This document shows positions 4,349 through 28,012 of a DNA stretch of 36,284 nucleotides, in pieces. The position numbers were made by a program, and so were the translations under genes. Position 1 is the stretch's first letter. The number at the start of each line of letters is the position of its first letter. This stretch comes from Patescibacteria group bacterium UBA6102 (GTDB taxonomy: Bacteria; Patescibacteriota; Minisyncoccia; Minisyncoccales; UBA5738). The notes beneath the pieces are model-generated. The model worked only from the letters and a program-made list of their open reading frames with translations, had not been told where the DNA came from and ran no database searches. The stretch covers positions 3,212 to 39,495 of the forward strand of contig DIWQ01000001.1 of assembly GCA_002423555.1 (NCBI GenBank), read 5' to 3'.

Positions 4349-5509
4349 TTAATTACTAACGCCGTTTAATATGTTGATAAATTTATCCGTTGTTGCTTCA
4401 GAAGTAAATTTTCGGGCAGACGATATTGCCGCTAGAGACATTCCCTTTCGGGCGCCTTTATTTAAAGCTAGCCAATTTATTTTTTCTTTCATTTCCTTGA
4501 CTGATTCCACGATAAATCCGTTGTTACCGTTCTCAATTACTTCCTCTGCAATCCCAATATTAAAACTCACGGGTATCAATCCCTGGGACATACCTTCGAT
4601 CAGTGTTAGGCTAAAACCTTCATAGCGAGACGGCATTATCAAGGCGTCCTCTCGCAATTTTGAAATATTATCTTTAATTTCTTCTTTTGTTAAGTTTTTC
4701 AGTAGGCAATGGTTTTTAAATTCGGTTTCCATCCACCGGCACACCTTTTCATCCCTCGCCAAAACAATACTTACCTTTCTAATGTTGCCGAATTCTTTAT
4801 AAATTTCCGCCAGCCGATCAATTCCTTTAATTTTCATATCTCGTGCTCCATTACCAATACGCCCCAGATAACAAATACCGAAATCGCCGGCTTTTTCAGC
4901 GGGTTGAAGGTTGGCCTCAAACCAGAAATCTTCAATAGCGTTATGGATCAATCCGATTTTTTCAGCGGCTACTCCCTGGTCAATGAGTTCGTTCCTGACT
5001 TTTGACGATACTGCGATCACTATCGCGGCTTTTTGCGCGACATATTTTTCGATATCAACAAGATCATTCAAAAAACGATTATTTACCGCGTCAAAGTTAA
5101 TATCGTTGGAGATTTCTTTGGCTGCTATTTTATCCCAAAACCAGCCGAAATCACCGCTATCGTCATTTGTCAGGGCGTTCCTGATGCCTGCCATAGTAGA
5201 TCCGAAATGACTTATGATTTTTTTTGAATAGCCAAGATATGCGATCGCCGAATATGTCGTTCCGTACACAAAATCGCAATCCATCACCTTATCTTTATCG
5301 CGGCAAGCGCTAAAAAAAACCATCAACTCCAAGGCGCTGCGCATACTGGCCGGAAAATCATGAAAAAAAAGATCCGGATCGGGATAAACCGCGACCGTAT
5401 CAATTCCTCTCTCGTTTAATTTTTTTTCTATCAGCTTGTTGATGAAATTTGTACCTGATGCGTATCTTGGATCATTGTGCACAAAAGCTATTTTCATAAA
5501 TTTTTTCAC
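4349..5509 (-). CDS. Glycosyltransferase, GT-B fold (GT4-like)
   Basis: This is a 386-aa ORF with a C-terminal E-x7-E region (PSRYEGFSLTLIEGMSQGLIPV). Confidence 0.8.
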   Translation of the reverse strand: MKKFMKIAFVHNDPRYASGTNFINKLIEKKLNERGIDTVAVYPDPDLFFHDFPASMRSALELMVFFSACRDKDKVMDCDFVYGTTYSAIAYLGYSKKIISHFGSTMAGIRNALTNDDSGDFGWFWDKIAAKEISNDINFDAVNNRFLNDLVDIEKYVAQKAAIVIAVSSKVRNELIDQGVAAEKIGLIHNAIEDFWFEANLQPAEKAGDFGICYLGRIGNGARDMKIKGIDRLAEIYKEFGNIRKVSIVLARDEKVCRWMETEFKNHCLLKNLTKEEIKDNISKLREDALIMPSRYEGFSLTLIEGMSQGLIPVSFNIGIAEEVIENGNNGFIVESVKEMKEKINWLALNKGARKGMSLAAISSARKFTSEATTDKFINILNGVSN

Positions 5510-5521
5510 GCAAAATTTAAA

Positions 5522-6688
5522 TTAAAGCCGTGGCAACAGGATATCTTTCAAAAAGCGGCCATAAACGACATCTATGTTCAACCTTTTTCTTAGCTCTTCC
5601 CTTATTGAAGGGCTAACCGTCTCAAAAGAAGCTTCTTCAATCTTTCCCGCGGTCGTTTTGAAATCATCAAAATCGAGTACCCAGTCACCAATGCCAATTT
5701 CGCGATACAAATCGGCAATTCCCATATTTAGGCTCACTAACGCGGGAGTGCCGGAAGCAAGCGCTTCCTGCGCCACATTGCCGTATGTTTCAAAATGCGA
5801 CGGACAAACGACCGCATCCATCTCTGAATAAAATAATGGAAGATTGCTATTACTCAAGGGGTCAATGAAATTAACGGATTTTTTCATTTTGCGGTACAGA
5901 ATATCATCATTGTGCAATGGCTTGCTTACAACGCTCACTTTGTACCGTTTTTTATTTTCAACTCCGTAACGCGCGAATTCATTCAAAAATTTCGGATTTT
6001 TAATGTCGCACCACCTTATAACGGCGCCGATATTCTTGCCCGCACCTGCTTCTTTTTGGCGTGTTTTAAAAAAGTAATCCGGTATTGGATTCGGCACAAT
6101 CGTCCAATTCTTTAATTCTCTGCCAACAACCTCCTTCTCCAGCGTTTTTTTGGCAAATATTGACGGCAAGACTATCAAATCATTCCCAATGTGGAAACTT
6201 TTTTCCATTTGTAGCAATATATCTTTCGTTTTTGGCTCATAATCTTCGGCTTCCTTTTTTAAAATACCGTGATAATAAACAATCACTTTGCCGACACTTT
6301 CTTTCTTTGCGGCAACATACAAGCACCATGGAAGATAATATGTGCAATTAACAAGAACAATGTCGGGTTTTTCTTGTTTTATCGCCGCGCGAAATTTTTC
6401 AATCACAGGACTTAGGGTCGTTTCAAAATCATTTAAATTTCGCGAATTCAAAAAAACATTCCTTAAATTATCGTAAATCGCGCCATATTTAACAAGCTTG
6501 AGATTTTTTCTATCCAACAATATATTTTTCTTGCAGGCTTGCTCGGGATTGTCGGTTTTGAAAACATCAACAGCAACCAACTGTATTTCCGGCTCTCTTT
6601 TTTGAAAGAATTCTGTGAGGGAAATAACAAATGTGTGCCTCATAAGTTCTTCCAAGCTGGCACACTGGACGTTTGTCATCACTTTCAT
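5522..6688 (-). CDS. Glycosyltransferase-like protein (GT-B fold), tandem paralogue A
   Basis: The 388-aa product contains VVCPSHFETYGNVAQEALASGTPALVS (an E-x7-E-like block). It aligns along its full length with the 385-aa neighbour. Confidence 0.7.
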   Translation of the reverse strand: MKVMTNVQCASLEELMRHTFVISLTEFFQKREPEIQLVAVDVFKTDNPEQACKKNILLDRKNLKLVKYGAIYDNLRNVFLNSRNLNDFETTLSPVIEKFRAAIKQEKPDIVLVNCTYYLPWCLYVAAKKESVGKVIVYYHGILKKEAEDYEPKTKDILLQMEKSFHIGNDLIVLPSIFAKKTLEKEVVGRELKNWTIVPNPIPDYFFKTRQKEAGAGKNIGAVIRWCDIKNPKFLNEFARYGVENKKRYKVSVVSKPLHNDDILYRKMKKSVNFIDPLSNSNLPLFYSEMDAVVCPSHFETYGNVAQEALASGTPALVSLNMGIADLYREIGIGDWVLDFDDFKTTAGKIEEASFETVSPSIREELRKRLNIDVVYGRFLKDILLPRL

Positions 6689-6794
6689 TCCAATATATTT
6701 AGACTGTTGAATGAATAATTGCGCAATTAAGATTAACCGATAAATTTGACAAGCTTAAATTTGTTCCAAAAATCAATTATTCAACAGTTTCATA

Positions 6795-7952
6795 TTATTT
6801 ATAATCAATATAATTCAAAAGCAATTTGTGAATACGGGCGGGATTAAGCTCATTTTTTAATTCCAGTCGAAGTTTTTGATCAACCGTTTCTTCCATTATC
6901 CGGTCGATTTTTTTAAATACTTTCGCCGGCACATCAAACGGCAAAATCCATTTATCCAGTCCGAACCGCCTGAATTGCTCTGCAACGCCCATATTGGGGC
7001 TGATAAGCGCGGGAGTTCCGGAAGCCACCGCTTCCTGTGCCACATTGCCGTATGTTTCAAAATGCGACGGACAAACAACGACATCCATTTTTGAGTAAAA
7101 CCGCGCCATCTTGGCATTTTCCATCGGCCGGACCATCTTAATCGAATCACGGATATTTTTTGGAATATCCGCAGCTGCCCTGACATCGCTTAACAAATTG
7201 AAAATTCCGCTTTTTATTGACTTTGAACTATGAGACGCGTATTTCAAGATGAAAGACTTATTCTTTATGTGGCGCCACCGCGCGACCGTTCCGATATTTT
7301 TCTTGGCCGCGCTTTTCCTATTTATCTTTATCGCCTTAAAGAAATGCAAAGGGATCGGGTTGGGCAAAATGCAAAAATGTTTCGGCTCCCTTCCGAAAAC
7401 ATCCTTAGCCACGGCATCTTTAGCGAACAAAGAAGGGAAAATATATCTTATATTGTCGGAATCAAAAGTTTTTTCTATGGCTTGGAAAACCCGGCGCATC
7501 GGCTCGGGGTAATGCTCGGTTTCTTTGGTCAGACTGCCGTGATAATGCAAGACAATATTTTTCACCGTGTCCCGCGCCGCCAACAGTAAACACCAGGGAA
7601 GATAATAAGTTCCGTTGAGCAATATTGCGTCCGGTTTTTCCCGCCGGATAATTTCTTTGTACCGGTTGATTATCGGTTTTAGATCATTTCTAACCTTGCC
7701 GATGTCATCCGCATTTTTAACCAGTTCTTTGATGTCGGGATGCGGCATTGAGGTCGTGATTACCCGGAAATTATTTTCGCTCCTTTCATCAATTTTTATT
7801 GGAGCATGGTTATCGGTTTTTACCATTTCCACTCCAACCAGTTCCAATTTTTTGGAATTTTCCCGCTTCTTCACATATGAAGACAGCGACGATAAGGCTT
7901 GGGCGATTCCGGCGAGCTTATAGAAGCGGATATTGGTTAGGATCTTCATCAT
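6795..7952 (-). CDS. Glycosyltransferase-like protein (GT-B fold), tandem paralogue B
   Basis: The 385-aa product contains VVCPSHFETYGNVAQEAVASGTPALIS and NGTYYLPWCLLLAAR. The paralogue has the matching block NCTYYLPWCLYVAAK. Confidence 0.7.
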   Translation of the reverse strand: MMKILTNIRFYKLAGIAQALSSLSSYVKKRENSKKLELVGVEMVKTDNHAPIKIDERSENNFRVITTSMPHPDIKELVKNADDIGKVRNDLKPIINRYKEIIRREKPDAILLNGTYYLPWCLLLAARDTVKNIVLHYHGSLTKETEHYPEPMRRVFQAIEKTFDSDNIRYIFPSLFAKDAVAKDVFGREPKHFCILPNPIPLHFFKAIKINRKSAAKKNIGTVARWRHIKNKSFILKYASHSSKSIKSGIFNLLSDVRAAADIPKNIRDSIKMVRPMENAKMARFYSKMDVVVCPSHFETYGNVAQEAVASGTPALISPNMGVAEQFRRFGLDKWILPFDVPAKVFKKIDRIMEETVDQKLRLELKNELNPARIHKLLLNYIDYK

Positions 7953-15556: not shown

Positions 15557-15588
15557 ACATTCCAACATTCTTGAGAATGTTGGAATGT
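15557..15588. repeat. Copy 1 of a perfect 14-bp-stem hairpin repeat (ACATTCCAACATTC-TTGA-GAATGTTGGAATGT)
   Basis: A 37-nt stretch, including the trailing TTATT, is identical to 27904-27940. It sits directly after the arsR stop codon and before the thioredoxin-like gene. Confidence 0.85.
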
Positions 15589-15891
15589 TTATTTGATTAT
15601 TTTAAAAATATTTTCCGCTATTCTTTCCCCTTTTTTGGTCAGCGAATAATGAATCCAAACCCCGTCCTTGCGGCCCTCGATTAAACCCGCTTTTTTTAAT
15701 TTATTCAAGTGGTGTGACACCAGATTTTGCGGCAAGCCAAGATGCTTGATGATCCGGCAGGCGCAATGTTCGCCGCCTCGCAAAATGCAAAGTATTTTAA
15801 GCCGGTTTTCTTGGGCCAATAACTTCAAAATCGCCGCGGCCGGCGCGAATTCTTCCTTGCGGCGGTTATTTCTGCAACATTCCGGTTTCAT
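15589..15891 (-). CDS. ArsR/SmtB-family metalloregulatory transcription factor
   Basis: The 100-aa product has a winged-HTH signature (LAQENRLKILCILRGGEHCACRIIKHLGLPQNLVSHHLNKLKKAGLI). Confidence 0.85.
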   Translation of the reverse strand: MKPECCRNNRRKEEFAPAAAILKLLAQENRLKILCILRGGEHCACRIIKHLGLPQNLVSHHLNKLKKAGLIEGRKDGVWIHYSLTKKGERIAENIFKIIK

Positions 15892-16074: not shown

Positions 16075-16320
16075 TCAAAATTCGTATTTTTTGCCGTCGG
16101 CGGCAGTTATCCGGAAATTCCGGATAACTGAATTTTCATCCAATTCTTGCTCCAAAAATATATTTTTCAAATGTTCGTTGACTGTGCGCACATCAACATC
16201 AAAAAGCTCGGCAATCAATTTTTGCGAAAGCCAAACATTTTCATCCTCAATCCTGACATGGATTCTATTCCCGCCACCCAAAGATTGATATATGACAATT
16301 TGCGATTTTTGATTTTCCAT
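16075..16320 (-). pseudogene. N-terminal fragment of a RhuM-family (virulence/defence-island associated) protein
   Basis: The 81-aa ORF reads IVIYQSLGGGNRIHVRIEDENVWLSQKLIAELFDVDVRTVNEHLKNIFLEQELDENSVIRNFRITAADGKKY. This resembles the first ~80 residues of ~330-aa RhuM proteins and then stops. Confidence 0.6.
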
Positions 16321-17237: not shown

Positions 17238-18773
17238 TTAATTTTCACCCGAAATTGCTGGATGTATCTCTCTATAATCATCTGGAAAAAGTTCTTTTGC
17301 ATTATTATATTCCTCTCTAAAGTAGTTAAACATAAATGGTTGGAATGCCCACATCCTTTTTTCATCATTTGTTTTATTAGTCATAAATTTTTTTATTCCA
17401 ACCTTGTTTATGACTTGCATTGTTTTCTCAAAGTCATCGGTAGAACAAACGGAATACGGCATTGTTTTTAATAAATCTTTTTTGATGCCTATTTCGTCAA
17501 ACTTCGCGGCCACCATAGTATCTAATTCCTGGACAATAATTTTATCTCCGTAAAGATACCAATCCTCTAATGTAACTACTAATGGGAAATTTAGTTTTTT
17601 ATTGTTGGGAAAATTTAAATAGAAATTATTTAAATAATCTAATATTGATTTGTAAATTTGCACTATAAAATCAGCCATCAAATTTAAATCCTCGTTTAAA
17701 ATTTTGTTATCCTCTAATAAAATTTTAGCTTCGGCGCGAAGTTTTTTAGTTTTACACTCAATAAATAGATTGCAATCGCTATCCGTTAGTATCCAGTCGA
17801 CTGTTTGCTTCTTATTTTTACCTACAAAGTATTCGGTTTCGCATAAAATTTGATATCTGCTATCGGTAATTGATTTTACTAAAGCTTCACCTATATAATT
17901 TTGGTAGGATTTTCCAAATGGATTAGAAAATGCCGGCTCATTGCATATCTCATAGTAAATTCCATCAGTAAACCGCCTAAATAGAAAAGTTGGGATGGGG
18001 CAAACCAAGCTATCCTTTTTATTGTAATCAGTTCTGATTAGAGGGGTTGCTCTTAATTGATTAAAGGAGTAAGAAAAATCTTGATTATATAGCTGCGTTT
18101 CTTTAATTTTTTCTCTCACGGAGACCATATCAATACAAAAATGATCCAAGAATCTGTCAAATTTTAATTTATCAATTCCACCAATAAACAAGGTGGGGGG
18201 ATAATGTAAGACGAAATTATTTAAATATATACCAATAATCGCGAGCCCAAGTGTATAAAGTTCCTTTGTCGTTAGTCCGATATTTTTTTGAATAATCAGA
18301 TTTAACTCTGAATTACTAAATATTTTATAATACCGTGTGATCCAAATAAGATTCGGATTTGATTGCCACGGGAATTGCCTATGTGAAATTCGATACAATT
18401 CAAGTAAAATATTTTCCTTGAATAGATTGGCATATTTGATAGAAATAATATTTTCCAAGTCTTTAATCTCATTTACTGCCTTGGAAAAATAATGCCATTG
18501 CTTAATTGTTTTTCCCGATGACGAATTATTATAATCTGCATTTAATATTATTTCTTTAACTAAAATCTCAAGTTCCCATTCGTAAACTTTTTTATCGTAT
18601 CTAGAAACCGCCCTTAAAAAAGCTGGATCAACTTGAATGTCGTTTGGCAGTGCTTGGCCAAATTGAAGATATTGAAAATATGCGCGAGTTACAGCAAGCG
18701 AATCCATTAAAGGAAATTGTCTTAGATAATTCCTTAATGGCTTGTATGATTCATAAATAAGCGATTCCCTCAT
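17238..18773 (-). CDS. Orphan 511-aa protein with a PD-(D/E)xK nuclease-like motif; candidate stand-alone defence effector
   Basis: This is a long uninterrupted ORF in the most AT-rich stretch of the window. The motif block is GKSYQNYIGEALVKS...ETEYFVG...TVDWILTDSDCNLFIECKTKKL (E...D...E-x-K spacing). I recognised no other family signature. Confidence 0.7.
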   Translation of the reverse strand: MRESLIYESYKPLRNYLRQFPLMDSLAVTRAYFQYLQFGQALPNDIQVDPAFLRAVSRYDKKVYEWELEILVKEIILNADYNNSSSGKTIKQWHYFSKAVNEIKDLENIISIKYANLFKENILLELYRISHRQFPWQSNPNLIWITRYYKIFSNSELNLIIQKNIGLTTKELYTLGLAIIGIYLNNFVLHYPPTLFIGGIDKLKFDRFLDHFCIDMVSVREKIKETQLYNQDFSYSFNQLRATPLIRTDYNKKDSLVCPIPTFLFRRFTDGIYYEICNEPAFSNPFGKSYQNYIGEALVKSITDSRYQILCETEYFVGKNKKQTVDWILTDSDCNLFIECKTKKLRAEAKILLEDNKILNEDLNLMADFIVQIYKSILDYLNNFYLNFPNNKKLNFPLVVTLEDWYLYGDKIIVQELDTMVAAKFDEIGIKKDLLKTMPYSVCSTDDFEKTMQVINKVGIKKFMTNKTNDEKRMWAFQPFMFNYFREEYNNAKELFPDDYREIHPAISGEN

Positions 18774-18937: not shown

Positions 18938-21772
18938 TTATGCGATGCTTAATAAGCTCGATATTGTGGAGTGGACGGTGATTTTTTCTGTGGGGATGAT
19001 TGCGTAGCGCCAGGGTTTTGTGATGCCGTATTTGCCGATGTTTTTGTTCACCGTTTCGCAGTATTTATCGGCGGTTTGTTTTTTTGCTTGCACCGATAGA
19101 TCATTAATTTCGCTCTCAGGTTTGACTTCGATCATTACGATTTCGTTTTTCAATTCGGCGACAAAATCCGGTTCATAGCGGTGGATGGAATCGCCCTGCT
19201 CGTCGCGCCAATACAAGCCGTCAAATTGGTTGGGCGCGGGCCGAAGCCAATCTTCAACCGCTTCGTCGCGATCCAGAAGATATGCCAACCTTGCTTCATC
19301 GGAAGAATCAAAACGATATTTGGAATGGCAGGCCTTGTTAAAATATCCGTAGAGCATTTTTGCCGAAAATGTATCCGCTTGCGAGTCAAGAGCAACTATT
19401 TTTTCTCCAAGTAATTCCGAAATGCCATAATCCTCCGAATATGGCTTCGATTCCCGCAGGTCCGATTCCAGATAACCTTCCGATTTCAATTCCTTATGAT
19501 CTAAAATTTGCTTGTATATGTCATCGGCGATACTTGCCGCATTGCTTTCAATAATCAAGGCCAGATTGTCTTCGTCAATTGCTTTTTTGCGGTAATGCGC
19601 CACGGTTTGTTCGGCCAATTTCAAAAGCAAAGGTTTCTGCGCCGAGTCTTCGTAATTTATGAGCGGCTCGCTCAAAAGAGCCGCAATGATGGTATTCCGC
19701 GGCGGTTGCCTGGCATAAGAGCCAAAACTGCTGATCCGCGTTATTTCGGGAATTCGCCGCCCCGGAACATCTTCGTTGAATAAGTTTTTTTCGCGGTTTG
19801 ATTGCAGCTGTTCTTCAAGAATCGCTCTTTCGTTGGTGTAGCCGCGCAAAACGCTTGTGTTCAAATCAAAATCAGCAATATGGATTTCGCCAAAATGCGG
19901 CGTCAATATCAAACGAGGAATGGGAATGTTTCTTTCTTCCAAAATTTTCGCGGATTGTTGCGAAATTTTGACAAGCTCCCCTCTCGTCGCGGCGCCAAAC
20001 AAGCCGAACAAAGTATCCGGCCCAAAACCGGTCTCAACCGGCGCGCCGCCGGTTTGCTGTTTGTGATAGCCGGAAAATGTAAGGTTTTTAATAGTTTCTT
20101 TTGCCAGATTACCAACCAGTTCCTCTTTCTTGGTTTCAACAAATTTAGCCCTTACAATTTCATCTATATTCATCATTTGCGGCGAATTGGAAACAAATTC
20201 TTCGGCTTTTTCAACGACCTCTTTCATCACAACTTCATTTTGCGTAATTTCGTTTTTTACATTATCAAGAATAACCGGCGAAACTTGCGTCAAAATTTTA
20301 ATTTCTTTGGTTTCTTTTTCGGAAATCTGTTCCACTTGGCCTTGGATAAGCGGCGAATCTTTGGCAAGCGCCACGACTTTGGCAAACTGTTCGTGAGCCA
20401 CGAGCACCAGCCGATCCACCAACGGCACCCCCGTGCGTTCCCCGTAGGGCAGGCGCAGTCCGCGGCCGATTGTCTGCTCGGTTAATATCGCGGCGGCGGC
20501 TTCGCGCAAAGGCGCGATTGTGTACACATTAGTAACATCCCACCCTTCCTTGAGCATATTCACGTGAATGACGATTTCCACCGGATTATCGGCGCGTTCA
20601 AGCGAAAGCAAAAGCTCAATGTTGTCGTCGGCCTCTTTTCCGCGCAGTTTTGTGTGTATTTCAATCACTTTGCCTTTAAATTCTCCACCACGAAAATCAT
20701 CGCTGTCAATCAATTTTCTAAGTGCTTCGGCGTGCTTTGTGTCTTTGGCCACCACAAGCAAAACCGGCTTTACGAGCGGTTTATTGTTTTCCGCGGCGTA
20801 TTCCTTCAAAGCGTTTTTTGCCCGTTCGTGAAAAAACGCCGCCAGCTGCAATTTTCGCGCATCAGTTTCGATTGAATCAGTGTCAAATTGGCCAAAATCA
20901 ACATCCGCCTCCGTTCCCACCCACGGATCTTTAACAAGCTTTCCTCGGATCGCGTCGCCAAGATTGTATGAATACAAAACATTCCGCATTTTGATCTGCC
21001 GCGCCTTTTTGCCCGTTCCCCGTGTACCAAGATATGGCGTGGCAGTCATTTCCAGACCGAACAACGGATCAAGAATATCCAACGCGCCAAGCGCCGCGTC
21101 GGCGTGGTAATGATGCGCTTCGTCAAGCATTACCACCAGATCGTCGTGCTCTTTAAGATAATCAAAATATGACTCCCCGGCGGTTTCCCACGCTTTGGTG
21201 ATACCGCGCTCGTTGTCCATATCTTTCTGGGCAAATTGCTGGATATTGAAAATGTTTATTTCAATTTGATTGCCGAACAAAGTATGACTGCGTTGATTGG
21301 CATAATTTTCAGTGGTGATAACTTTGGCAGTATTGATGCTTATCTCCTGAATGCCGCGAAAAACATATTTTGGATTACTGGCCTTGCTGAAATCGTCGTA
21401 AAGTTTGCGATAGATGGTTAAATTCGGCGCGACGATCAAAAAATGCTGGATATTGTAAACCAGATACATATAAGCGACAAAAGCGCCCATCAGCCTCGTT
21501 TTGCCCACGCCAGTCGCCAAAGCAAAGGTAAAGGCGGGAAACGCTCTTTCAAATTCTTCAAACTCGCGGGCTTCGGGCACGTCGGCAAAGTATGCCTTGC
21601 TGGTTGCCAAAATATCCGCAATATCGGCGCCAGTTTTCTTTTTCAAGCGCGTTAATAATTTTTGTCCGGCGGGCGCCTGCAAATAATCGGCAAAAAGCTG
21701 TAAACTTTTTACCTGCGGCACCCGCAAGCTCATCGCGCCGTTTATGTATTTGATCGCTTCTTCTGGTTTCAT
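18938..21772 (-). CDS. res: Type III restriction enzyme Res-like subunit (SF2 helicase plus C-terminal PD-(D/E)xK nuclease)
   Basis: The ORF has Walker A ALATGVGKTRLMG, DEAH box VVMLDEAHHY, motif III LEMTATP and motif VI EQTIGRGLRLP. The C-terminal block is YEPDFVAEL...IVMIEVKP. It lies 5 nt downstream of mod. Confidence 0.85.
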   Translation of the reverse strand: MKPEEAIKYINGAMSLRVPQVKSLQLFADYLQAPAGQKLLTRLKKKTGADIADILATSKAYFADVPEAREFEEFERAFPAFTFALATGVGKTRLMGAFVAYMYLVYNIQHFLIVAPNLTIYRKLYDDFSKASNPKYVFRGIQEISINTAKVITTENYANQRSHTLFGNQIEINIFNIQQFAQKDMDNERGITKAWETAGESYFDYLKEHDDLVVMLDEAHHYHADAALGALDILDPLFGLEMTATPYLGTRGTGKKARQIKMRNVLYSYNLGDAIRGKLVKDPWVGTEADVDFGQFDTDSIETDARKLQLAAFFHERAKNALKEYAAENNKPLVKPVLLVVAKDTKHAEALRKLIDSDDFRGGEFKGKVIEIHTKLRGKEADDNIELLLSLERADNPVEIVIHVNMLKEGWDVTNVYTIAPLREAAAAILTEQTIGRGLRLPYGERTGVPLVDRLVLVAHEQFAKVVALAKDSPLIQGQVEQISEKETKEIKILTQVSPVILDNVKNEITQNEVVMKEVVEKAEEFVSNSPQMMNIDEIVRAKFVETKKEELVGNLAKETIKNLTFSGYHKQQTGGAPVETGFGPDTLFGLFGAATRGELVKISQQSAKILEERNIPIPRLILTPHFGEIHIADFDLNTSVLRGYTNERAILEEQLQSNREKNLFNEDVPGRRIPEITRISSFGSYARQPPRNTIIAALLSEPLINYEDSAQKPLLLKLAEQTVAHYRKKAIDEDNLALIIESNAASIADDIYKQILDHKELKSEGYLESDLRESKPYSEDYGISELLGEKIVALDSQADTFSAKMLYGYFNKACHSKYRFDSSDEARLAYLLDRDEAVEDWLRPAPNQFDGLYWRDEQGDSIHRYEPDFVAELKNEIVMIEVKPESEINDLSVQAKKQTADKYCETVNKNIGKYGITKPWRYAIIPTEKITVHSTISSLLSIA

Positions 21773-21777
21773 AGTGT

Positions 21778-23397
21778 TTAGTCGTTATTCTCTTCCGCCG
21801 CTTCAATGTCAACTTCCTCCAAGGCGGTTTCTTTGATCGGTAGCAGATATTCTTTTTTGCCGAAATGACACGCCTTCAAAACCGATTGCGGGATTTTCTT
21901 GATCGTGATACGACTATCAATTTTGTCGGCTCCGGGTTCAAAATTTTTGGGACAAACGATCAGCGATTCGCCATCCAAAAGATGCGCCGCAATTTGCCGA
22001 ACCATTCCGCAAGTCAGAAGCTGGGTGGTAATGTAAAGATAATTTTTCCCCTGTCCCGCGCCGTGTTTCCAGTATTCGGTTTGGCTCGGCTGATATGTAA
22101 AATTCATAAGCTTGCACATCGCCTTTATAAGCTTGGTTTCATTATAAAAACTGTCAATCACCGGATTGCCAAACTCATCCTTTACAATAAAACTTGGTGC
22201 CAGCTCATAAAACTTATATGCCCCGCTGCCTTGCCAATTCACCGCCTTACTAATGCCTCCCTGATCGCTCCCATCAATCACCTTATCCAGCCGCACCTTG
22301 CAATGCGTATAAGCATGTTCCCCCATCTCAATCCCGATATACCTCCTCCCCATCTTATGCGCCACCGCCGCGGTAGTGCCAGAGCCAAGGAAAGAATCAA
22401 GAACAAAATCAGATTTATCTGATCCAAGTTGAATGATTCTTTGCATTAATTTTTCTGGTTTCGGAGTTCCAAAAATATCTTCTCCAAACAATACTTTAAT
22501 TTCTCTTTTCGCATCTTGATTATGCCCCACCTCTTGGTATGTCCATAGAGTCATAGCAACAATCCCATCTCTGACTTCCGATAAAAATCTTTTGATACGA
22601 GGAACTCCATCTCCATTTTGTCCAAAATAAATTCGATTATCTTTTTTGAATTCTTCAAATCTTTCCCTAGATAATCTCCACGAATAACCCGTTGGAGGAA
22701 AAACTTTTCGACCATTCGGCCCCGTTATTTCGTAAACATTTGACTCTACCGCGGGGCCTACAGAAAAATTATCTGATTGCCACAAACCACGCGGGTCATT
22801 ATCAAAATTTTGATATCTATCATTGGCTGCCTCGCTTCTTACCAATTTATTTAATGTAAAATTTAAGGTTTTGTTTTTTGCATAAACAAGGATTGCATCA
22901 TGCGACCTCGAAAGTGTTTTTTTGAGGTTTATTGGGGCATAGGATCGTTGCCAAATTACTTCATCAACAAAATTTCTTCTATCAAAAACTTCATCACATA
23001 ATACCTTTAAATAATGGCTTTCCTCCGCGTCAATTGAAATCCAAATACTGCCATTGTTTGGATCAAGAAGCATCCTTAACAATTCTAATCTTGGTTTCAT
23101 TAGTGAAAGCCAAGTGCTATGTTCCACACAATCGTCGTAATGATCAAAAGCACCACCTGTATTATAAGGAGGGTCAATGTAAATGCATTTTATCCTGCCT
23201 TCGTATTCGGGCAAAAGCGCTTTGAGTGCCAAAAGATTGTCGCCGTGGATGATCATATTTTCGGTGTTCGGATCGTTGGCGCAATTTGAAAGCTCCGGGT
23301 TTTCTTCCAAAATCCGCGGCTCAATATTGGCAATATCATATTCGGGATTATTCTTCCCGATCCAAGTAAGTTCTAATTTTTGTTTGTTATTATTCAT
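21778..23397 (-). CDS. mod: Beta-class N6-adenine/N4-cytosine DNA methyltransferase (Type III Mod-like)
   Basis: Motif IV (IYIDPPYNTG) precedes motif I (DSFLGSGTTAAVAHKMGRRYIGIE), which is the beta-class order. I place the start at the ATG at 23397 (MNNNKQKLELTWIGK), because the track start at 23412 is a TTG. Confidence 0.85.
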   Translation of the reverse strand: MNNNKQKLELTWIGKNNPEYDIANIEPRILEENPELSNCANDPNTENMIIHGDNLLALKALLPEYEGRIKCIYIDPPYNTGGAFDHYDDCVEHSTWLSLMKPRLELLRMLLDPNNGSIWISIDAEESHYLKVLCDEVFDRRNFVDEVIWQRSYAPINLKKTLSRSHDAILVYAKNKTLNFTLNKLVRSEAANDRYQNFDNDPRGLWQSDNFSVGPAVESNVYEITGPNGRKVFPPTGYSWRLSRERFEEFKKDNRIYFGQNGDGVPRIKRFLSEVRDGIVAMTLWTYQEVGHNQDAKREIKVLFGEDIFGTPKPEKLMQRIIQLGSDKSDFVLDSFLGSGTTAAVAHKMGRRYIGIEMGEHAYTHCKVRLDKVIDGSDQGGISKAVNWQGSGAYKFYELAPSFIVKDEFGNPVIDSFYNETKLIKAMCKLMNFTYQPSQTEYWKHGAGQGKNYLYITTQLLTCGMVRQIAAHLLDGESLIVCPKNFEPGADKIDSRITIKKIPQSVLKACHFGKKEYLLPIKETALEEVDIEAAEENND

Positions 23398-23402
23398 AAT
23401 AA

Positions 23403-23897
23403 TTAAGACCAATTGAAAGTTTTTAGCCTATTCCTTGGTATCGTTCTGGATAATTCTGATCCTCTACACTTAATGTGCAAGCTGGTACTTGGCTCCCAAG
23501 ACACGGAAATATTCGCAGGTGTTCTTTCTAGGGTTAGCCTCAAATCATCTATATCTTCCCATTCTAAAGTGCAAATCTCTTTATCGGAACATACGAGGCA
23601 AATTAATAAATTCCGGCTAATATCTATAGATCTTAGTTTATCAATGTCCATTTCGTTAAAAGTAAAATTGCACACACTTTCCCCTTTCCTACGATTTGTT
23701 ATTTGCGAAGTCCATTTTATATAAATCCTATGTGTTGTAGCATTGTCCGTTACCTCATAAGCACCCCAACCATAAGAATCGTTTCTTTCTATTAGTTTCA
23801 AATTTATCAAGGGATTTCTAATAATTTGAGAAAGTACGGCCCCATGATAAAGCTCAAATTGTGCTGTAGTTGGCATATATTCTATATTACTTTCCAC
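23403..23897 (-). CDS. Orphan protein (157-164 aa) wedged between the SNF2 helicase and the methyltransferase
   Basis: The ORF fills the whole gap between the two genes. Its start is either the GTG at 23897, which overlaps SNF2 by 16 nt, or the ATG at 23876, which lies 5 nt after the SNF2 stop. I recognised no motif. It is AT-rich. Confidence 0.6.
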   Translation of the reverse strand: MESNIEYMPTTAQFELYHGAVLSQIIRNPLINLKLIERNDSYGWGAYEVTDNATTHRIYIKWTSQITNRRKGESVCNFTFNEMDIDKLRSIDISRNLLICLVCSDKEICTLEWEDIDDLRLTLERTPANISVSWEPSTSLHIKCRGSELSRTIPRNRLKTFNWS

Positions 23898-26842
23898 CGC
23901 ACGGTGAACAATGGTGTGAGAGTGGTTTTTTGGTTTAATTGGGTTTCAACTTTTTCCAATAAATTTTCTTTTTTGACGTCAACATCATCCTGCGACCGAT
24001 AAAGTTTTTGGCGCATTTCGTTCCGCTTTTTTTCTAAATCCTTGATCTCGCGCTGAAGCTTAACTTTTTCTCCCAAGTTAAGCACCTTCTTCGCGTTCGT
24101 TTTCATCGCTTTTATATCAATATCCATTTGTCTTAGCTCAATTTCCAAACTTTTTTTCACATCTTCGGCCCATTTATCAAGCTTATCCACTTCATTGTCA
24201 AAAAATTCGCCGTTACGACCGGCAACACTCGCCACGATGATTGTGGCTTTTTCTTGTTCCCTTTGCCACAATATCTCGTTTTTTATTTCGGATATATTTT
24301 TATTTATTTTGGCATTGAGCGTGAACAGTTTTTCGGCGATATCTTCATCAATCGCCTCGCCGCTGTCTTTGATTGCGGTTATTAAAATATTGTCCTCGGT
24401 TTCAAACGAATCAATCGTAAATTCTGATACTTGCAGAATGCCGGACGCGCCCACCAATTCTTTTATTGATGAAATAATTTGTCCGTGATTGGAATAATCA
24501 AAAATTAGTTCCGCGCCGGGCAATTTCAATGCTTTGATTTCTTGCAAAATCAGCACCGCCAACGGATGGCCTGGGCGGTAAATGTGAGCGTCGTCAATAT
24601 TCTTACCGATTTTATATGGCCCTTCCTCAACTTTTTCTTCCGGAAAAGGATTTTGTTTGAGAGTGAAGGAATATTCATCATCGGCATAAACCGCTTTATC
24701 GCCCAAAAAATGCCGCGAAATGTCCCAGAGCCATTTTTCGTATGTTTCCAAATATGATTTGCTTTCCCGCAAATTCACTTTTAGTTTTTCGCAGACATCG
24801 GTGTCAAAGTTCTCCAAAAGTTTTTCTTTGGCTCCCTGCATTCCTTCTTCAATTGATCCGCCCATTTCCACTTGCAAGGCGTCAAAGGCGCGGTCAATTT
24901 CTTCATCGGTGCGGCAAGTTTGATAAATTGCGGCAATTCTTTTTTCAAAATCAACTCCGGAGGCAATGTTTCCCAGCACTTCATCGCTTGCCCCAAACAC
25001 CCCTTTAAAAAGCTGGAATTTTTGATCAAGCAAGTCATATACACGCTTATCGGCGGCGTTTTTGCGGTTCACAAAATTTACCACAACCACATCGTGTTTT
25101 TGACCGTAGCGATGGCAGCGGCCGATTCGCTGCTCAATTCTTTGCGGATTCCACGGTAGATCGTAATTGATGACCAGCGAACAGAATTGCAAATTGATGC
25201 CCTCGGCGGCCGCTTCGGTGGCAATCATAATTTCCGCGTCAGTTTTAAAATAATCCACCAGCGCGGCACGAAGATCCGCGGTTTTTGAACCGGTTATTTT
25301 GTCGCTATTTTTGTTTTTTTGCAACCAGTCGGCATAAATTTCTTTTGATTTCTGATCGTTGTTGGAGCCATTGAATAATACTATTTTATCTTTATAACCG
25401 CTTTCCGTGAGCAATTTCCAAAGGTAATCTTGGGTAATTCTTGATTCCGTAAAAATAATCGCCTTTCTGGGTATATCCTGATCGCCTCGTTCCTTTACCA
25501 ATTCTTCCTGCTTGCTAAACCCTTTTTCCAAAGCGGTGAGCAACGATTCTCCTTTTGAATTTTTAAAAATCGACTTGGCAAGTTCTCGGAATTTCTCCAA
25601 GTAATTTTTTTCGGCTTGGATAAAAGGCAGATCATCAATCGTGTATTTTTTCTTTTCCTTTGATTTTTCCTCGTCGTCTTCCTCCTCATTATCAATCCAT
25701 TCATCCGCCGTATCCGCGAACGCCTCGTAATTTTCTTCAAGCCCGGGCGGAAGTTCGCCGTTTTCGGCAATAGATTCATTGGCTATTTCCGTTTCCAATT
25801 TCTCAATCTTGTAAACAAGGCCGTTTAGCGTGCTGGCAATGGCAAACGAAGACGATGCAAGAAGTTTGCGCAATATCAGCGTCATAAGCTGGCGCTGGCT
25901 GGAAGGCAAGGCGTATAATTTAGGGCGTTGCAAATACTCCGACATTCCATTGTAAAGCTCAATTTCTTGATCGGTGGGAGTATAATCCTGCGTTAACGGA
26001 ATTCTTCTGGTATATTTGATATATTCCAAAACCTGGCGCCGCAAAGTCCGGATACAGATCGGCTTTAATCGGTTCCTCAAATCTTCAAACATTTCCCGTT
26101 TCGGCTCAATCGCGCCATCTTCACGGTCGCAAATATCCTGCTCTCGGGAAACCCGCGCGTAGTTTGCCTTAAAACTCTTTAAATCGCCAAAAACATGGTC
26201 ATCAACAATACTGACTAATCCAAAAAGCTCCAATAGCGAATTTTGCAATGGTGTTGCGGTCAAAAGAATTTTGGGAATGCCGTCCAGTGATTCCTTGATT
26301 TGTTTGGCGATTTTGTTGCTTGATTTATAAACATTGCGCAGCCGGTGGGCTTCATCAATAACCGCTAAATCCCATTTTGTTTGTTTTATATACGGAGATT
26401 TTGCCCTCGCGAAATGATATGAACAAATAATAATGGAGTCTTCTTGATTGAAAGGATTAAGATTTCCCTCTTTGACAAATTGATTGAATGATTTTGCTTC
26501 GATAATAGTTGAGGGGAGAAAAAATTTTTCTTGAAGTTCAGAATTCCATTGCTTCCTTAAGCTGGATGGCACAATGAGCAATATTTTTCTTTTTCTTTCT
26601 GCCCACTTTTGCGACAAGACAAGGCCTGCCTCAATCGTTTTTCCCAGACCGACTTCATCCGCCAGAATCGCGCCCCTGGAAAGCGGCGAACGAAAAGCAA
26701 AAAGCGCCGCTTCGATTTGATGTGGATTTAGATCAACCTGCGCATTTGACAATGTTGATGATAGTTTTTCTAAGCTATCCGACGAACATCGCTTCGCAAG
26801 CTGATACGCAAAATATTTAGCGTGATAATCGGTAATGCTCAT
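23882..26842 (-). CDS. SNF2-family (SF2) helicase/translocase with a ~330-aa C-terminal extension ending in a coiled-coil-like region
   Basis: Motif I is ILADEVGLGKTIEAG, motif II is AVIDEAHRLRN, motif III is LLTATPLQNSLLELF and motif VI is QRIGRCHRYGQKHDVVVVNF. The C-terminus is Lys/Glu-rich and heptad-like (LEIELRQMDIDIKAMKTNAKKVLNLGEKVKLQREIKDLEKKRNEMRQKL). Confidence 0.9.
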   Translation of the reverse strand: MSITDYHAKYFAYQLAKRCSSDSLEKLSSTLSNAQVDLNPHQIEAALFAFRSPLSRGAILADEVGLGKTIEAGLVLSQKWAERKRKILLIVPSSLRKQWNSELQEKFFLPSTIIEAKSFNQFVKEGNLNPFNQEDSIIICSYHFARAKSPYIKQTKWDLAVIDEAHRLRNVYKSSNKIAKQIKESLDGIPKILLTATPLQNSLLELFGLVSIVDDHVFGDLKSFKANYARVSREQDICDREDGAIEPKREMFEDLRNRLKPICIRTLRRQVLEYIKYTRRIPLTQDYTPTDQEIELYNGMSEYLQRPKLYALPSSQRQLMTLILRKLLASSSFAIASTLNGLVYKIEKLETEIANESIAENGELPPGLEENYEAFADTADEWIDNEEEDDEEKSKEKKKYTIDDLPFIQAEKNYLEKFRELAKSIFKNSKGESLLTALEKGFSKQEELVKERGDQDIPRKAIIFTESRITQDYLWKLLTESGYKDKIVLFNGSNNDQKSKEIYADWLQKNKNSDKITGSKTADLRAALVDYFKTDAEIMIATEAAAEGINLQFCSLVINYDLPWNPQRIEQRIGRCHRYGQKHDVVVVNFVNRKNAADKRVYDLLDQKFQLFKGVFGASDEVLGNIASGVDFEKRIAAIYQTCRTDEEIDRAFDALQVEMGGSIEEGMQGAKEKLLENFDTDVCEKLKVNLRESKSYLETYEKWLWDISRHFLGDKAVYADDEYSFTLKQNPFPEEKVEEGPYKIGKNIDDAHIYRPGHPLAVLILQEIKALKLPGAELIFDYSNHGQIISSIKELVGASGILQVSEFTIDSFETEDNILITAIKDSGEAIDEDIAEKLFTLNAKINKNISEIKNEILWQREQEKATIIVASVAGRNGEFFDNEVDKLDKWAEDVKKSLEIELRQMDIDIKAMKTNAKKVLNLGEKVKLQREIKDLEKKRNEMRQKLYRSQDDVDVKKENLLEKVETQLNQKTTLTPLFTVRWKVI

Positions 26843-27097
26843 TTTGTTGATTATTCAAGCACTATCCCATTCAATTTAACTCTGTTGACAAAATAATGCG
26901 TGCTGATACGATTTAATTGGAATCGCTTTCAGACCGAATTGTGGCGTTTATCGCCGCGTTCCCGCAAGGGATAGGTTTGGAAGTTTTTTGTTATTGGGAT
27001 ACAGGCAGACAAAAATAAAAATATGAGCATATCCGCGCTCCAAGCTCCGTCCACTATAAACTATCACAATTTGGACCAAAAATCCATTTGAAAACAC

Positions 27098-27385
27098 AAA
27101 AAAGCGGGGGGTGAACCCCGCGGATGTTTTTGGCCTCAATTTTTCGGTTTACATACTCGGCCTTGCGGCCGCCGACTATGAGAAGCGGAGGCAAAAAGAG
27201 CCGACACTCTTGGATAGGGTTAGAACTTATTACAAGGAAAATACCTTAGATTGACCCCCGATTGAGCTCGCTTTGCCCTTCCAAACAGTAATTTGGCCGG
27301 GCTTCGCTCGCAAAGGGGCAACCGAGCTCGGCTCCATCTTTTCGGCTAAAATGCGGTATATGTGGCGGGCGGATTTTTTGGTGCG
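27098..27385 (-). ncRNA. Candidate ~290-nt structured RNA (unclassified) with its own promoter-like motif and an intrinsic terminator
   Basis: On the minus strand it starts just after motif copy 3. It contains nested helices (GAGCTCG/CGAGCTC plus TGCCC/GGGCA, CCAAA/TTTGG, and CGGCC-GCAA-GGCCG with a GNRA loop). It ends in GCGGGG-n6-CCCCGC followed by T6 (27098-27121). There is no convincing ORF. Confidence 0.4.
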
Positions 27386-27716: not shown

Positions 27717-27790
27717 TGGCTGCCGGACCTGGATTCGAACCAAGATAGACGCCTTCAAAGGGCGTTGTCCTACCATTAGACGATCCGGCA
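27717..27790 (-). tRNA. tRNA-Gln (UUG), CCA encoded
   Basis: A manual cloverleaf gives acceptor UGCCGGA/UCCGGCA (U1:A72) and D stem GUCU/GGAC. The anticodon stem is ACGCC/GGCGU with loop CUUUGAA. The T arm is CUUGG-UUCGAAU-CCAGG, followed by G73 and CCA. The total is 74 nt. Confidence 0.9.
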
Positions 27791-27903: not shown

Positions 27904-27935
27904 CCGGATATGGACATTCCAACATTCTTGAGAAT
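27904..27935. repeat. Copy 2 of the 14-bp-stem hairpin repeat
   Basis: The sequence is identical to 15557-15588, and the identity extends through the trailing TTATT. It lies between the dnaX terminator and tRNA-Gln. Confidence 0.85.
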
Positions 27936-28012
27936 GTTGGAATGTTTATTAACGACAGATAGTTTATTTTAATGTTCCGCAGAATATCAAAATGCTTTTT
28001 GGGGTGCAAACC

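Follow-up and report, generated by a model that had tools for sequence, protein, structure and literature searches.

The 36,284-nucleotide (nt) stretch of DNA analyzed here, termed the window (Patescibacteria group bacterium UBA6102, GenBank assembly GCA_002423555.1, contig DIWQ01000001.1, positions 3,212 to 39,495), carries on its minus strand an operon of four genes. In order, these encode a DrmD-like SNF2-family ATPase of 986 amino acids (aa; 26842..23882), a 157-aa protein without a match in Pfam, PADLOC or NCBIfam, hereafter the orphan (23876..23403), a Type III Mod methyltransferase (539 aa, 23397..21778) and a Type III Res subunit (944 aa, 21772..18938). The locus is probably a Type III restriction-modification (R-M) operon of the Eco86II/BspHIV subgroup, with the SNF2 ATPase as a separable accessory motor and the orphan as cargo. 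All three junctions have 5-nt spacers (TAG-aatat-ATG, TAA-ttatt-ATG and TAA-acact-ATG). A mechanical list of open reading frames (ORFs) also offers upstream starts, GTG for the orphan and TTG for Mod, but homologs of the orphan start M-x-T-T-A-Q-F-E-L-Y-H-G, that is, at the ATG (compare MPTTAQFELYHG with MATTAQFELYHG, beginning at the ATG), and the 5-nt spacers are the better reading because the homologs begin there. An earlier first-pass annotation, made from the sequence without database searches, had described four co-oriented genes with 5-nt spacers on the proviso that the orphan starts at its ATG, and both the coordinates and the starts of the homologs agree with this. Tight spacing by itself is ordinary in operons, and conservation is the stronger evidence.

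The first gene matches Pfam SNF2-rel_dom and Helicase_C, and its product has the motifs GLGKT (residues 65-69), DEAH (163-166) and QRIGRCHRYGQ (571-581). The protein consists of a helicase core (residues ~30-630), a long helix, an alpha/beta domain (~717-850), a helical hairpin (~856-969) and a terminal strand. The coiled-coil-like C-terminal extension seen in the first-pass annotation was borne out by an AlphaFold model of residues 620-986 (predicted local distance difference test score, pLDDT, 79), which shows the long helix, the alpha/beta domain, an antiparallel helical hairpin of ~115 residues and the terminal strand. A fold search of this C-terminal region against the PDB gave no significant match, Pfam revealed no nuclease domain in the protein, and its closest solved relative is RapA. 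The same annotation had recognized a translocase recalling DrmD of the DISARM defense system, and the profile matches agree with this. DrmD models are the top profile matches (PADLOC PDLC02619, 693 bits; NCBIfam DISARM_DrmD_b, NF038318, 700 bits) and, as with DrmD of class 1 DISARM, the gene adjoins a methyltransferase gene. Unlike DrmD, however, the window protein scores under the curated NCBIfam equivalog cut-off (950 bits for NF038318; for NF038317 it reaches 261 bits, under a cut-off of 610), and the DrmD_b alignment covers profile positions 21-697 of 868 and leaves the last ~230-280 C-terminal residues of the SNF2 protein unmatched. The family is very large, with >8000 protein clusters matching at E<1e-30. 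Among the 120 best-listed clusters identity to the window is 69-92% and most are from Patescibacteria, and the nearest relatives of the window come from genome bins of Moranbacteria, Roizmanbacteria and Peribacterales.

The third and fourth genes are a Type III pair. Mod (Pfam N6_N4_Mtase, PF01555, 158 bits; PADLOC MTase_III, 552 bits) has DPPY at residues 75-78 (23175-23164) and then FLGSGTT at residues 336-342 (22392-22372), with the target-recognition region in between, and its best solved relatives are 6K0W, a chain deposited as an adenine-specific DNA methyltransferase (Mod), and EcoP15I Mod. Res (Pfam ResIII, 72 bits; PADLOC REase_III, 403 bits) is a superfamily 2 (SF2) helicase-like ATPase with a C-terminal nuclease and contains GVGKT (residues 88-92), DEAH (217-220), QTIGRGLR (433-440) and PD-x13-EVK (868-884, at 19171-19121). 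A weak Pfam TnsA-like N match lies at its residues 856-907, and its sole sequence match in the PDB is EcoP15I Res (E 1e-6 over ~85 residues), to which it is related at a distance only. The assignment of the two proteins to Type III in the first-pass annotation thus holds, since all the motifs named there are present, the MTase_III and REase_III profiles both match and the Mod-Res spacer is 5 nt. As in the classical enzymes EcoP15I and EcoP1I, mod precedes res, DPPY of Mod stands before FxGxG with the variable recognition region between them, and Res combines Walker A, DEAH, motif VI and a C-terminal PD-ExK. Unlike in those systems, the pair in the window shares its transcript with two upstream genes, one for an SNF2 ATPase and one small. 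There is strong support for a beta-class Mod methyltransferase whose recognition region can be exchanged, and for a Res that joins an SF2 ATPase to a PD-ExK nuclease at its C-terminus.

The exchangeability of the recognition region is evident from the closest relative of the operon, a locus denoted L012. In blastn comparisons the variable target-recognition segment of Mod (22461..23076, minus strand) is swapped in L012 while the flanks retain 86-91% nucleotide identity, and tblastn matches to Mod in L012 are confined to residues 1-178 and 310-539. The swap indicates a recent recombination and, apparently, a change of specificity. Synonymous divergence between the window and L012 is 0.26 for Res, 0.49 for the orphan and 0.85 for the SNF2 C-terminus. 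Because divergence differs about threefold by segment and the recognition segment of Mod has been replaced, the operon is best regarded as a recombination mosaic.

The first-pass annotation considered the composition of the operon not assignable to any named system, and this did not stand, because the SNF2-Mod-Res trio has already been described. Murray et al. (2021, PLoS One; PMC8259958) characterized six Type III systems that form N4-methylcytosine (m4C), and reported for Eco86II (Escherichia coli NCTC86) and BspHIV (Acinetobacter sp. H) a third gene 5′ of mod. The same extra gene was found in "hundreds" of presumed Type III systems in >500 genomes, and its product was described as a conserved helicase-like ATPase that is non-homologous to Res and without a nuclease motif, the role of which was left open (PMC8259958). 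In these experiments Mod alone methylated, asymmetric-site hemimethylation and ATP-dependent cleavage needing two inversely oriented unmethylated sites were shown for Eco86II, and peptides of Mod and Res, but none of the extra ATPase, were present in a partially purified Eco86II fraction with cutting activity ~25 bp from GAGCC (PMC8259958).

The Eco86II locus in E. coli NCTC86 (NZ_CP019778.1) encodes the ATPase WP_000580534.1 (963 aa), a methyltransferase (1040 aa) and a DEAD/DEAH helicase (1126 aa). Residues 1-986 of the window SNF2 align with residues 2-963 of WP_000580534.1 at 44% identity, the hairpin and the C-terminal ...RWKVI being common to both, while Mod shares 26% identity across the catalytic core and Res is barely alignable. 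Since the SNF2 protein aligns end to end and Mod and Res are diverged, the window is taken to belong to this subgroup, its Mod and Res being of another lineage. The likeness extends to the gene order ATPase-Mod-Res, the ATPase family, the beta-class Mod and a Res that joins an SF2 ATPase to a PD-ExK nuclease. Unlike Eco86II (1040/1126 aa), the window has a Mod and Res (539/944 aa) from a shorter lineage. Eco86II methylation is m4C, whereas the window Mod may form m6A or m4C. The window is further set apart by the extra 157-aa gene between ATPase and mod and by the lack of an upstream helix-turn-helix (HTH) gene. The search for an already described subtype therefore had its match in the literature, whereas in PADLOC 2.0 and NCBIfam each of the three proteins is still scored by itself.

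How widely this arrangement is conserved was surveyed with the best 65-80 matches of each scan, so that percentages are not to be read as unbiased frequencies. The SNF2 query gave 159 further loci on metagenome and IMG/VR contigs, which were annotated with profiles built in this analysis. A full-family SNF2 is present in 112 of them and the orphan in none (0 of 159). Mod and Res follow downstream on the same strand in 65 loci, Mod is followed by the contig end in 13, and 6 have no Mod despite at least 6 kb of downstream sequence. Mod or Mod+Res is thus found downstream of SNF2 in 78 of the 112 loci, and in most of the remaining loci the contig breaks off. Those exceptions without Mod that were examined have bulky cargo after SNF2, among it Fic, a Schlafen-like protein, an HmaA-like helicase, AAA ATPases, an ISL3 transposase, Cas3/Cse1 and GmrSD, and no DISARM genes. 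The nearest relatives of the window (78-81% SNF2 identity) have the order HTH-SNF2-Mod-Res or SNF2-Mod-Res with no orphan, and full-length relatives on plasmids of Klebsiella, Salmonella, E. coli and Cupriavidus, with 44-51% SNF2 identity, show this trio too, as a rule preceded by a small HTH gene. A search of papers for the accessions of the plasmid proteins found no mention of them. Hence the co-conservation of SNF2 with mod-res in other genomes, which the first-pass annotation needed if the juxtaposition was not to be due to chance, is upheld by 78 of 112 loci.

The same loci also bear on the separability of the motor from the pair. In 71 non-redundant trios the median similarity to the window, in bits per residue, is 0.89 for SNF2, 0.57 for Mod and 0.39 for Res, and similarity is well correlated between Res and Mod (Spearman rho 0.82) and less so between SNF2 and Res (0.45). 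Similar SNF2 proteins pair with three size classes of Mod/Res (about 540/900, 650/990 and 1040/1120 aa). Among Res relatives of the window class that have at least 8.9 kb of upstream sequence, 19 have SNF2 upstream and 16 are plain Mod-Res pairs. In E. coli F9792 (L189, NZ_CP024273.1, 8984-11874), the host of EcoF9792I in Table 4 of Murray et al. (PMC8259958), the SNF2 gene is annotated as frameshifted and the adjacent methyltransferase and helicase-nuclease genes are intact, apparently a natural loss of the extra motor. These comparisons strongly support an SNF2 gene that is inherited together with Mod-Res across phyla and yet is a separable module. Taken together, the survey data and the published biochemistry lead to the view that Mod-Res is an autonomous Type III enzyme and SNF2 a separable, optional and strongly conserved add-on.

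Two of the loci deserve a separate comment. In L013 (JAUYKW010000023.1, 7047-12108) SNF2, orphan and Mod are intact and no Res gene lies downstream, and the locus looks like a methylase-only remnant that has retained the motor. On IncF Klebsiella plasmids, as seen in L010 (Klebsiella pneumoniae plasmid NZ_CP023488.1, 862-18521), HTH-SNF2-Mod-Res stands a few kb downstream of ssb, parB, psiB and psiA and is separated from them by small ORFs and two insertion sequence (IS) elements. This neighborhood is presumably the plasmid leading region, in which case the operon may be expressed early upon entry into a new host.

The orphan (23403..23876, minus strand) is a real gene, as judged from its dN/dS (ratio of nonsynonymous to synonymous divergence) of 0.06 against the closest relative, which denotes purifying selection, from an AlphaFold model with a pLDDT of 87 and from 359 matching clusters. 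The order of helices and strands in the model fits the alpha-beta-beta-beta-alpha-beta core of the PD-(D/E)xK fold, and the top Foldseek matches are chains of the SPARDA complex and Hjc resolvase, which are marginal (E~1e-3, TM score 0.4-0.5). Residue K54 is invariant, and E8, E30 and E41 are nearly so. Unlike canonical PD-(D/E)xK proteins, the orphan has no (D/E)xK, as the residue two before K54 is hydrophobic in 20 of 20 sequences, and it has an extra C-terminal beta region, not found in the PD-(D/E)xK matches, with an invariant PRNRLKxFxW motif. The orphan is thus a constrained small protein with a possible restriction-endonuclease-like (PD-(D/E)xK) fold, as weakly suggested by a predicted model with marginal structural matches. 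An exhaustive profile search returned 359 clusters of the family at 50% identity, 91 of them at E<=1e-10. Almost all of these are proteins of 145-170 aa that stand alone, and no Pfam domain was found in the members sampled. Fusion proteins of the wider family (435-591 aa) likewise have no Pfam domain that would hint at a function. A word-indexed search gave 30 homologs, all metagenomic.

Where the orphan occurs is informative. Copies at least 50% identical to that of the window sit in SNF2-orphan-Mod-Res operons (L001/L015, L004/L014, L006, L007, L012 and L016) or, in L013, in such an operon that has lost Res, and copies less than 50% identical are solo, near HicAB or HigBA, between two identical IS copies or, in L017, inside an operon with an Eco57I-like methylase, AIPR, SNase and a PLD-SNF2 helicase. 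The orphan is missing both from the 159 loci found with SNF2 and from the nearest relatives of the window. The window SNF2 and Res are 77-81% identical to those of orphan-less loci, and 63-69% and 35-37% identical, respectively, to those of other orphan-bearing loci; because the orphan-less loci are closer to the window, the orphan must have entered, or been exchanged between, different operon lineages. On this distribution it appears to be a mobile passenger gene in the SNF2-Mod junction and not a core component, and it probably acts alone or just loosely with the operon. The idea of the first-pass annotation that it is an adaptor co-conserved with SNF2 and mod-res has to be abandoned in view of its absence from the surveyed loci and the nearest relatives and of the solo copies elsewhere. 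A link between the orphan and DUF3800 proteins, suggested by a DUF3800-IX RNA upstream of the operon and by DUF3800 cargo in relatives, found no support, since the neighbor in L017 has no DUF3800 match and the small partner of the DUF3800 cargo is unrelated (hhalign probability 0.1%).

A passenger at this position is in keeping with what the junctions hold elsewhere. In the 79 loci with Mod downstream, the gap between SNF2 and Mod is <=120 nt in 36, 433-832 nt in 11 and >1 kb in 32, and the gap between Mod and Res exceeds 300 nt in 15 loci. The inserts vary greatly and include GajA (887 bits), PtuA, PtuB, HerA, an AbiU-like protein, RhuM-like PDC-S05, DUF3800/PDC-M04A, LmuB-like and Ppl-like ATPases and Fic/Doc, and on an E. 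coli chromosome Abi and AIPR genes occupy the same slot. By these comparisons the SNF2-Mod and Mod-Res junctions appear to be cargo slots for defense genes, with the orphan in the first slot. Unlike this catalogued cargo, the orphan belongs to no catalogued defense family. Defense-gene cargo inside R-M operons is known for Type I hsd loci. Cargo is embedded in both cases, but the host operon in the window is of Type III and includes an SNF2 gene.

As for how the operon works, Type III enzymology and the Eco86II data (PMC8259958) imply that a Mod2Res1 complex would recognize an asymmetric site, would methylate one host DNA strand and would cut DNA that is not methylated once ATP has triggered sliding between two sites in inverse orientation, all without SNF2. 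The SNF2 protein is tentatively seen as an auxiliary double-stranded DNA translocase, not a stoichiometric component, which acts in vivo on DNA-bound obstacles or stalled complexes, a reading to which we give somewhat less than an even chance. The obstacles could be protective phage proteins, nucleoid proteins or parked Mod2Res, clearing them would widen or speed restriction, and the C-terminal alpha/beta domain and helical hairpin would serve docking or dimerization. Several points weigh against an auxiliary motor and a passenger orphan. The missing SNF2 peptides in the partially purified fraction are compatible with a transient or weak association and do not exclude one. SNF2 is always first, often overlaps mod or lies within 40 nt of it and is co-inherited, which would also fit a third subunit or a regulator. 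The strong conservation of SNF2 could reflect an independent function. Moreover, the orphan recurs at the exact SNF2-Mod junction in two Res lineages with 5-nt spacers, and this could mean a functional tie to SNF2 instead of an exchange via conserved flanks.

Alternatively, the SNF2 protein might limit self-damage rather than boost defense, either by stripping or resetting Mod2Res on unmethylated host sites or by modulating expression, so that restriction is alleviated after replication or repair or on establishment. Type III sites are hemimethylated by nature, and the closest solved relative, RapA, dislodges stalled RNA polymerase. The SNF2 gene heads the operon, in many cases preceded by an HTH regulator, and the class 1 DISARM study, whose system includes DrmD, reports no autoimmunity without methylases. 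A safety or control role is nevertheless unlikely, as natural loss of SNF2 with Mod and Res intact and the many plain Mod-Res relatives show that the pair is tolerated alone.

It is likewise improbable that SNF2 is a stoichiometric third subunit of a two-motor Mod2-Res-SNF2 enzyme, in which SNF2 would provide directional translocation and Res the nuclease. The position of the gene at the head of the operon, directly adjoining mod in 36 of 79 loci, its co-inheritance across phyla and a conserved C-terminal region, whose alpha/beta domain and hairpin would suit contacts with other proteins, would all be expected of a subunit. However, the Eco86II fraction that cut DNA held Mod and Res and no ATPase peptides, and Mod alone methylates (PMC8259958), so that a two-motor enzyme finds no support in the published cutting preparation. 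In addition, similar SNF2 proteins pair with three unrelated Mod/Res classes with weak covariation, about half of the close Res relatives are without SNF2, and in E. coli F9792 a frameshifted SNF2 gene lies beside intact Mod and Res genes.

There is also a small chance that SNF2, alone or with the orphan, is an independent second defense layer that shares the operon, in the manner of a split helicase-nuclease like HmaA or ZorD. Many defense SNF2 proteins are fused to nucleases (PADLOC ZorD, HmaA and PLD-helicase matches; HmaA-like in L027, PLD-SNF2 in L017), the orphan has a possible nuclease-like fold and begins 5 nt after SNF2, its solo copy in L017 adjoins a PLD-SNF2 helicase, and the operon is a hot-spot for other defense genes. 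Yet the orphan is missing from nearly all loci of the SNF2 family, so SNF2 cannot depend on it, it has no canonical (D/E)xK, and SNF2 is almost never found without Mod-Res in the survey. A broader and equally speculative proposal is that the DrmD-like SNF2 is a portable booster motor that became attached, time and again, to unrelated methylation-based restriction cassettes, at least three Type III Mod/Res lineages and the DrmMI-DrmABC of class 1 DISARM among them, with the orphan as a trans-acting nuclease-fold partner. If true, two restriction activities, one based on Res and one on SNF2 plus orphan, would share one methylation mark.

That the locus is a reduced or variant DISARM or another methylation-linked system (MADS, BREX type 3, Hma) is very unlikely: DrmD models are the best SNF2 profile matches and the upstream HTH of the E. 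coli relatives is annotated MAD1 (label "mads1"), but the scanned window ORFs contain no DrmA, DUF1998 or PLD protein (the DISARM core is absent, as the first-pass annotation had said), none of DrmA, DrmB and DrmC lies downstream of the SNF2 family in the surveyed loci examined, MAD6-8, PglZ, BrxC and DUF499 are absent, and the DrmD_b score is sub-threshold with the last ~230 residues unmatched. The methylase, moreover, is of the wrong family, since DrmMI of class 1 DISARM is PF13659 (class 1 DISARM study) and the window methylase is PF01555. MADS needs MAD6, MAD7 and MAD8, and its authors treat MAD1 as a widespread regulator (10.1101/2023.03.30.534895). The PADLOC mad profiles gave no match to the operon proteins, and the element shared with MADS is a generic HTH regulator of the E. 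coli relatives that is missing in the window. BREX type 3 was rejected for want of PglZ, BrxC or DUF499, the BREX-related "BR" systems (PMC12839542) are centered on DUF499, which is absent here, and the ARMADA/YprA systems (PMC12458937) use a different helicase family.

The window is thus a divergent example of a known subgroup and reveals no new kind of system. The extra SNF2 ATPase, first reported five years ago, is widespread, with versions in many uncultured phyla and on plasmids and chromosomes of Klebsiella, Salmonella and E. coli. What the analysis adds are three leads, namely that the motor is better conserved than the other genes of the operon and recombines with various Mod/Res cassettes, that it is the nearest relative of DISARM DrmD, and that the gene junctions are insertion slots for other defense genes. 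These leads would help in the design of a genetic test of the motor, and the trio could be treated as a single unit by defense-finding tools. What the SNF2 motor does and what the orphan family is are the points of remaining interest.

Upstream of the operon, the leader and likely promoter region (26843..27121, minus strand) is bounded by a terminator-like hairpin at 27121-27104 (GCGGGG-loop-CCCCGC and a T-run), which is suggestive only, as the counts in the promoter and terminator scans were no higher than in shuffles. HTH genes stand upstream of SNF2 in L009-11, L024, L025, L186 and about 17 surveyed loci; there is none upstream of the window operon, where the small ORFs have no Pfam match. 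Divergent from the SNF2 start, at 26925-26988 on the plus strand, lies a match to the Rfam small RNA DUF3800-IX (54 bits, gathering score 36.8, E 4e-9 window-wide), with a promoter-like TTGACA-16-TACGAT ahead of it (26885-26912, plus strand) and a U-run at its end. No DUF3800 gene was found in the window; in L034 and L045 the cargo between Mod and Res includes DUF3800 proteins. That the RNA is a conserved part of the operon is not supported, as it is absent in 7 related loci. A tRNA-Gln gene (27717-27790, minus strand) lies ~875 nt upstream of the SNF2 start, and in L001 a tRNA (6784-6857) lies ~190 nt upstream of the homologous SNF2 gene; a repeat of the tRNA 3′ end that would mark an integration site was not found.

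The operon is framed by a perfect 37-nt direct repeat that is also palindromic (15557-15593 and 27914-27950; ACATTCCAACATTCTTGAGAATGTTGGAATGTTTATT), of which none is expected by chance. The 12.3 kb between the copies hold arsR, a RhuM fragment, a GapS1-like gene, the R-M operon, the small RNA and the tRNA-Gln. The repeat is absent from all 193 fetched loci, and the two copies could be island borders or a duplicated operator. The GapS1-like gene is a 511-aa ORF (17238-18773, minus strand) just downstream of Res in a low-GC patch (0.31-0.33), that matches the GapS1 anti-phage family of NCBIfam weakly (78 bits, cut-off 320) and gives no match in Pfam or PADLOC; as the segment 17081-18813 is missing from the closest relative, L012, it is regarded as a separate insertion. 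The RhuM fragment is an 81-aa ORF (16075-16320, minus strand) that corresponds to the N-terminus of a RhuM-like protein of the PADLOC PDC-S05 type, with 35% identity (E 3e-17) to the cargo between Mod and Res in L111, and it is probably a remnant of earlier island content. Finally, at some distance from the operon, positions 4349-7952 (minus strand) encode three tandem paralogous family-4 glycosyltransferases (385-388 aa each), each with a Pfam "GT4-conflict" match just over the cut-off.

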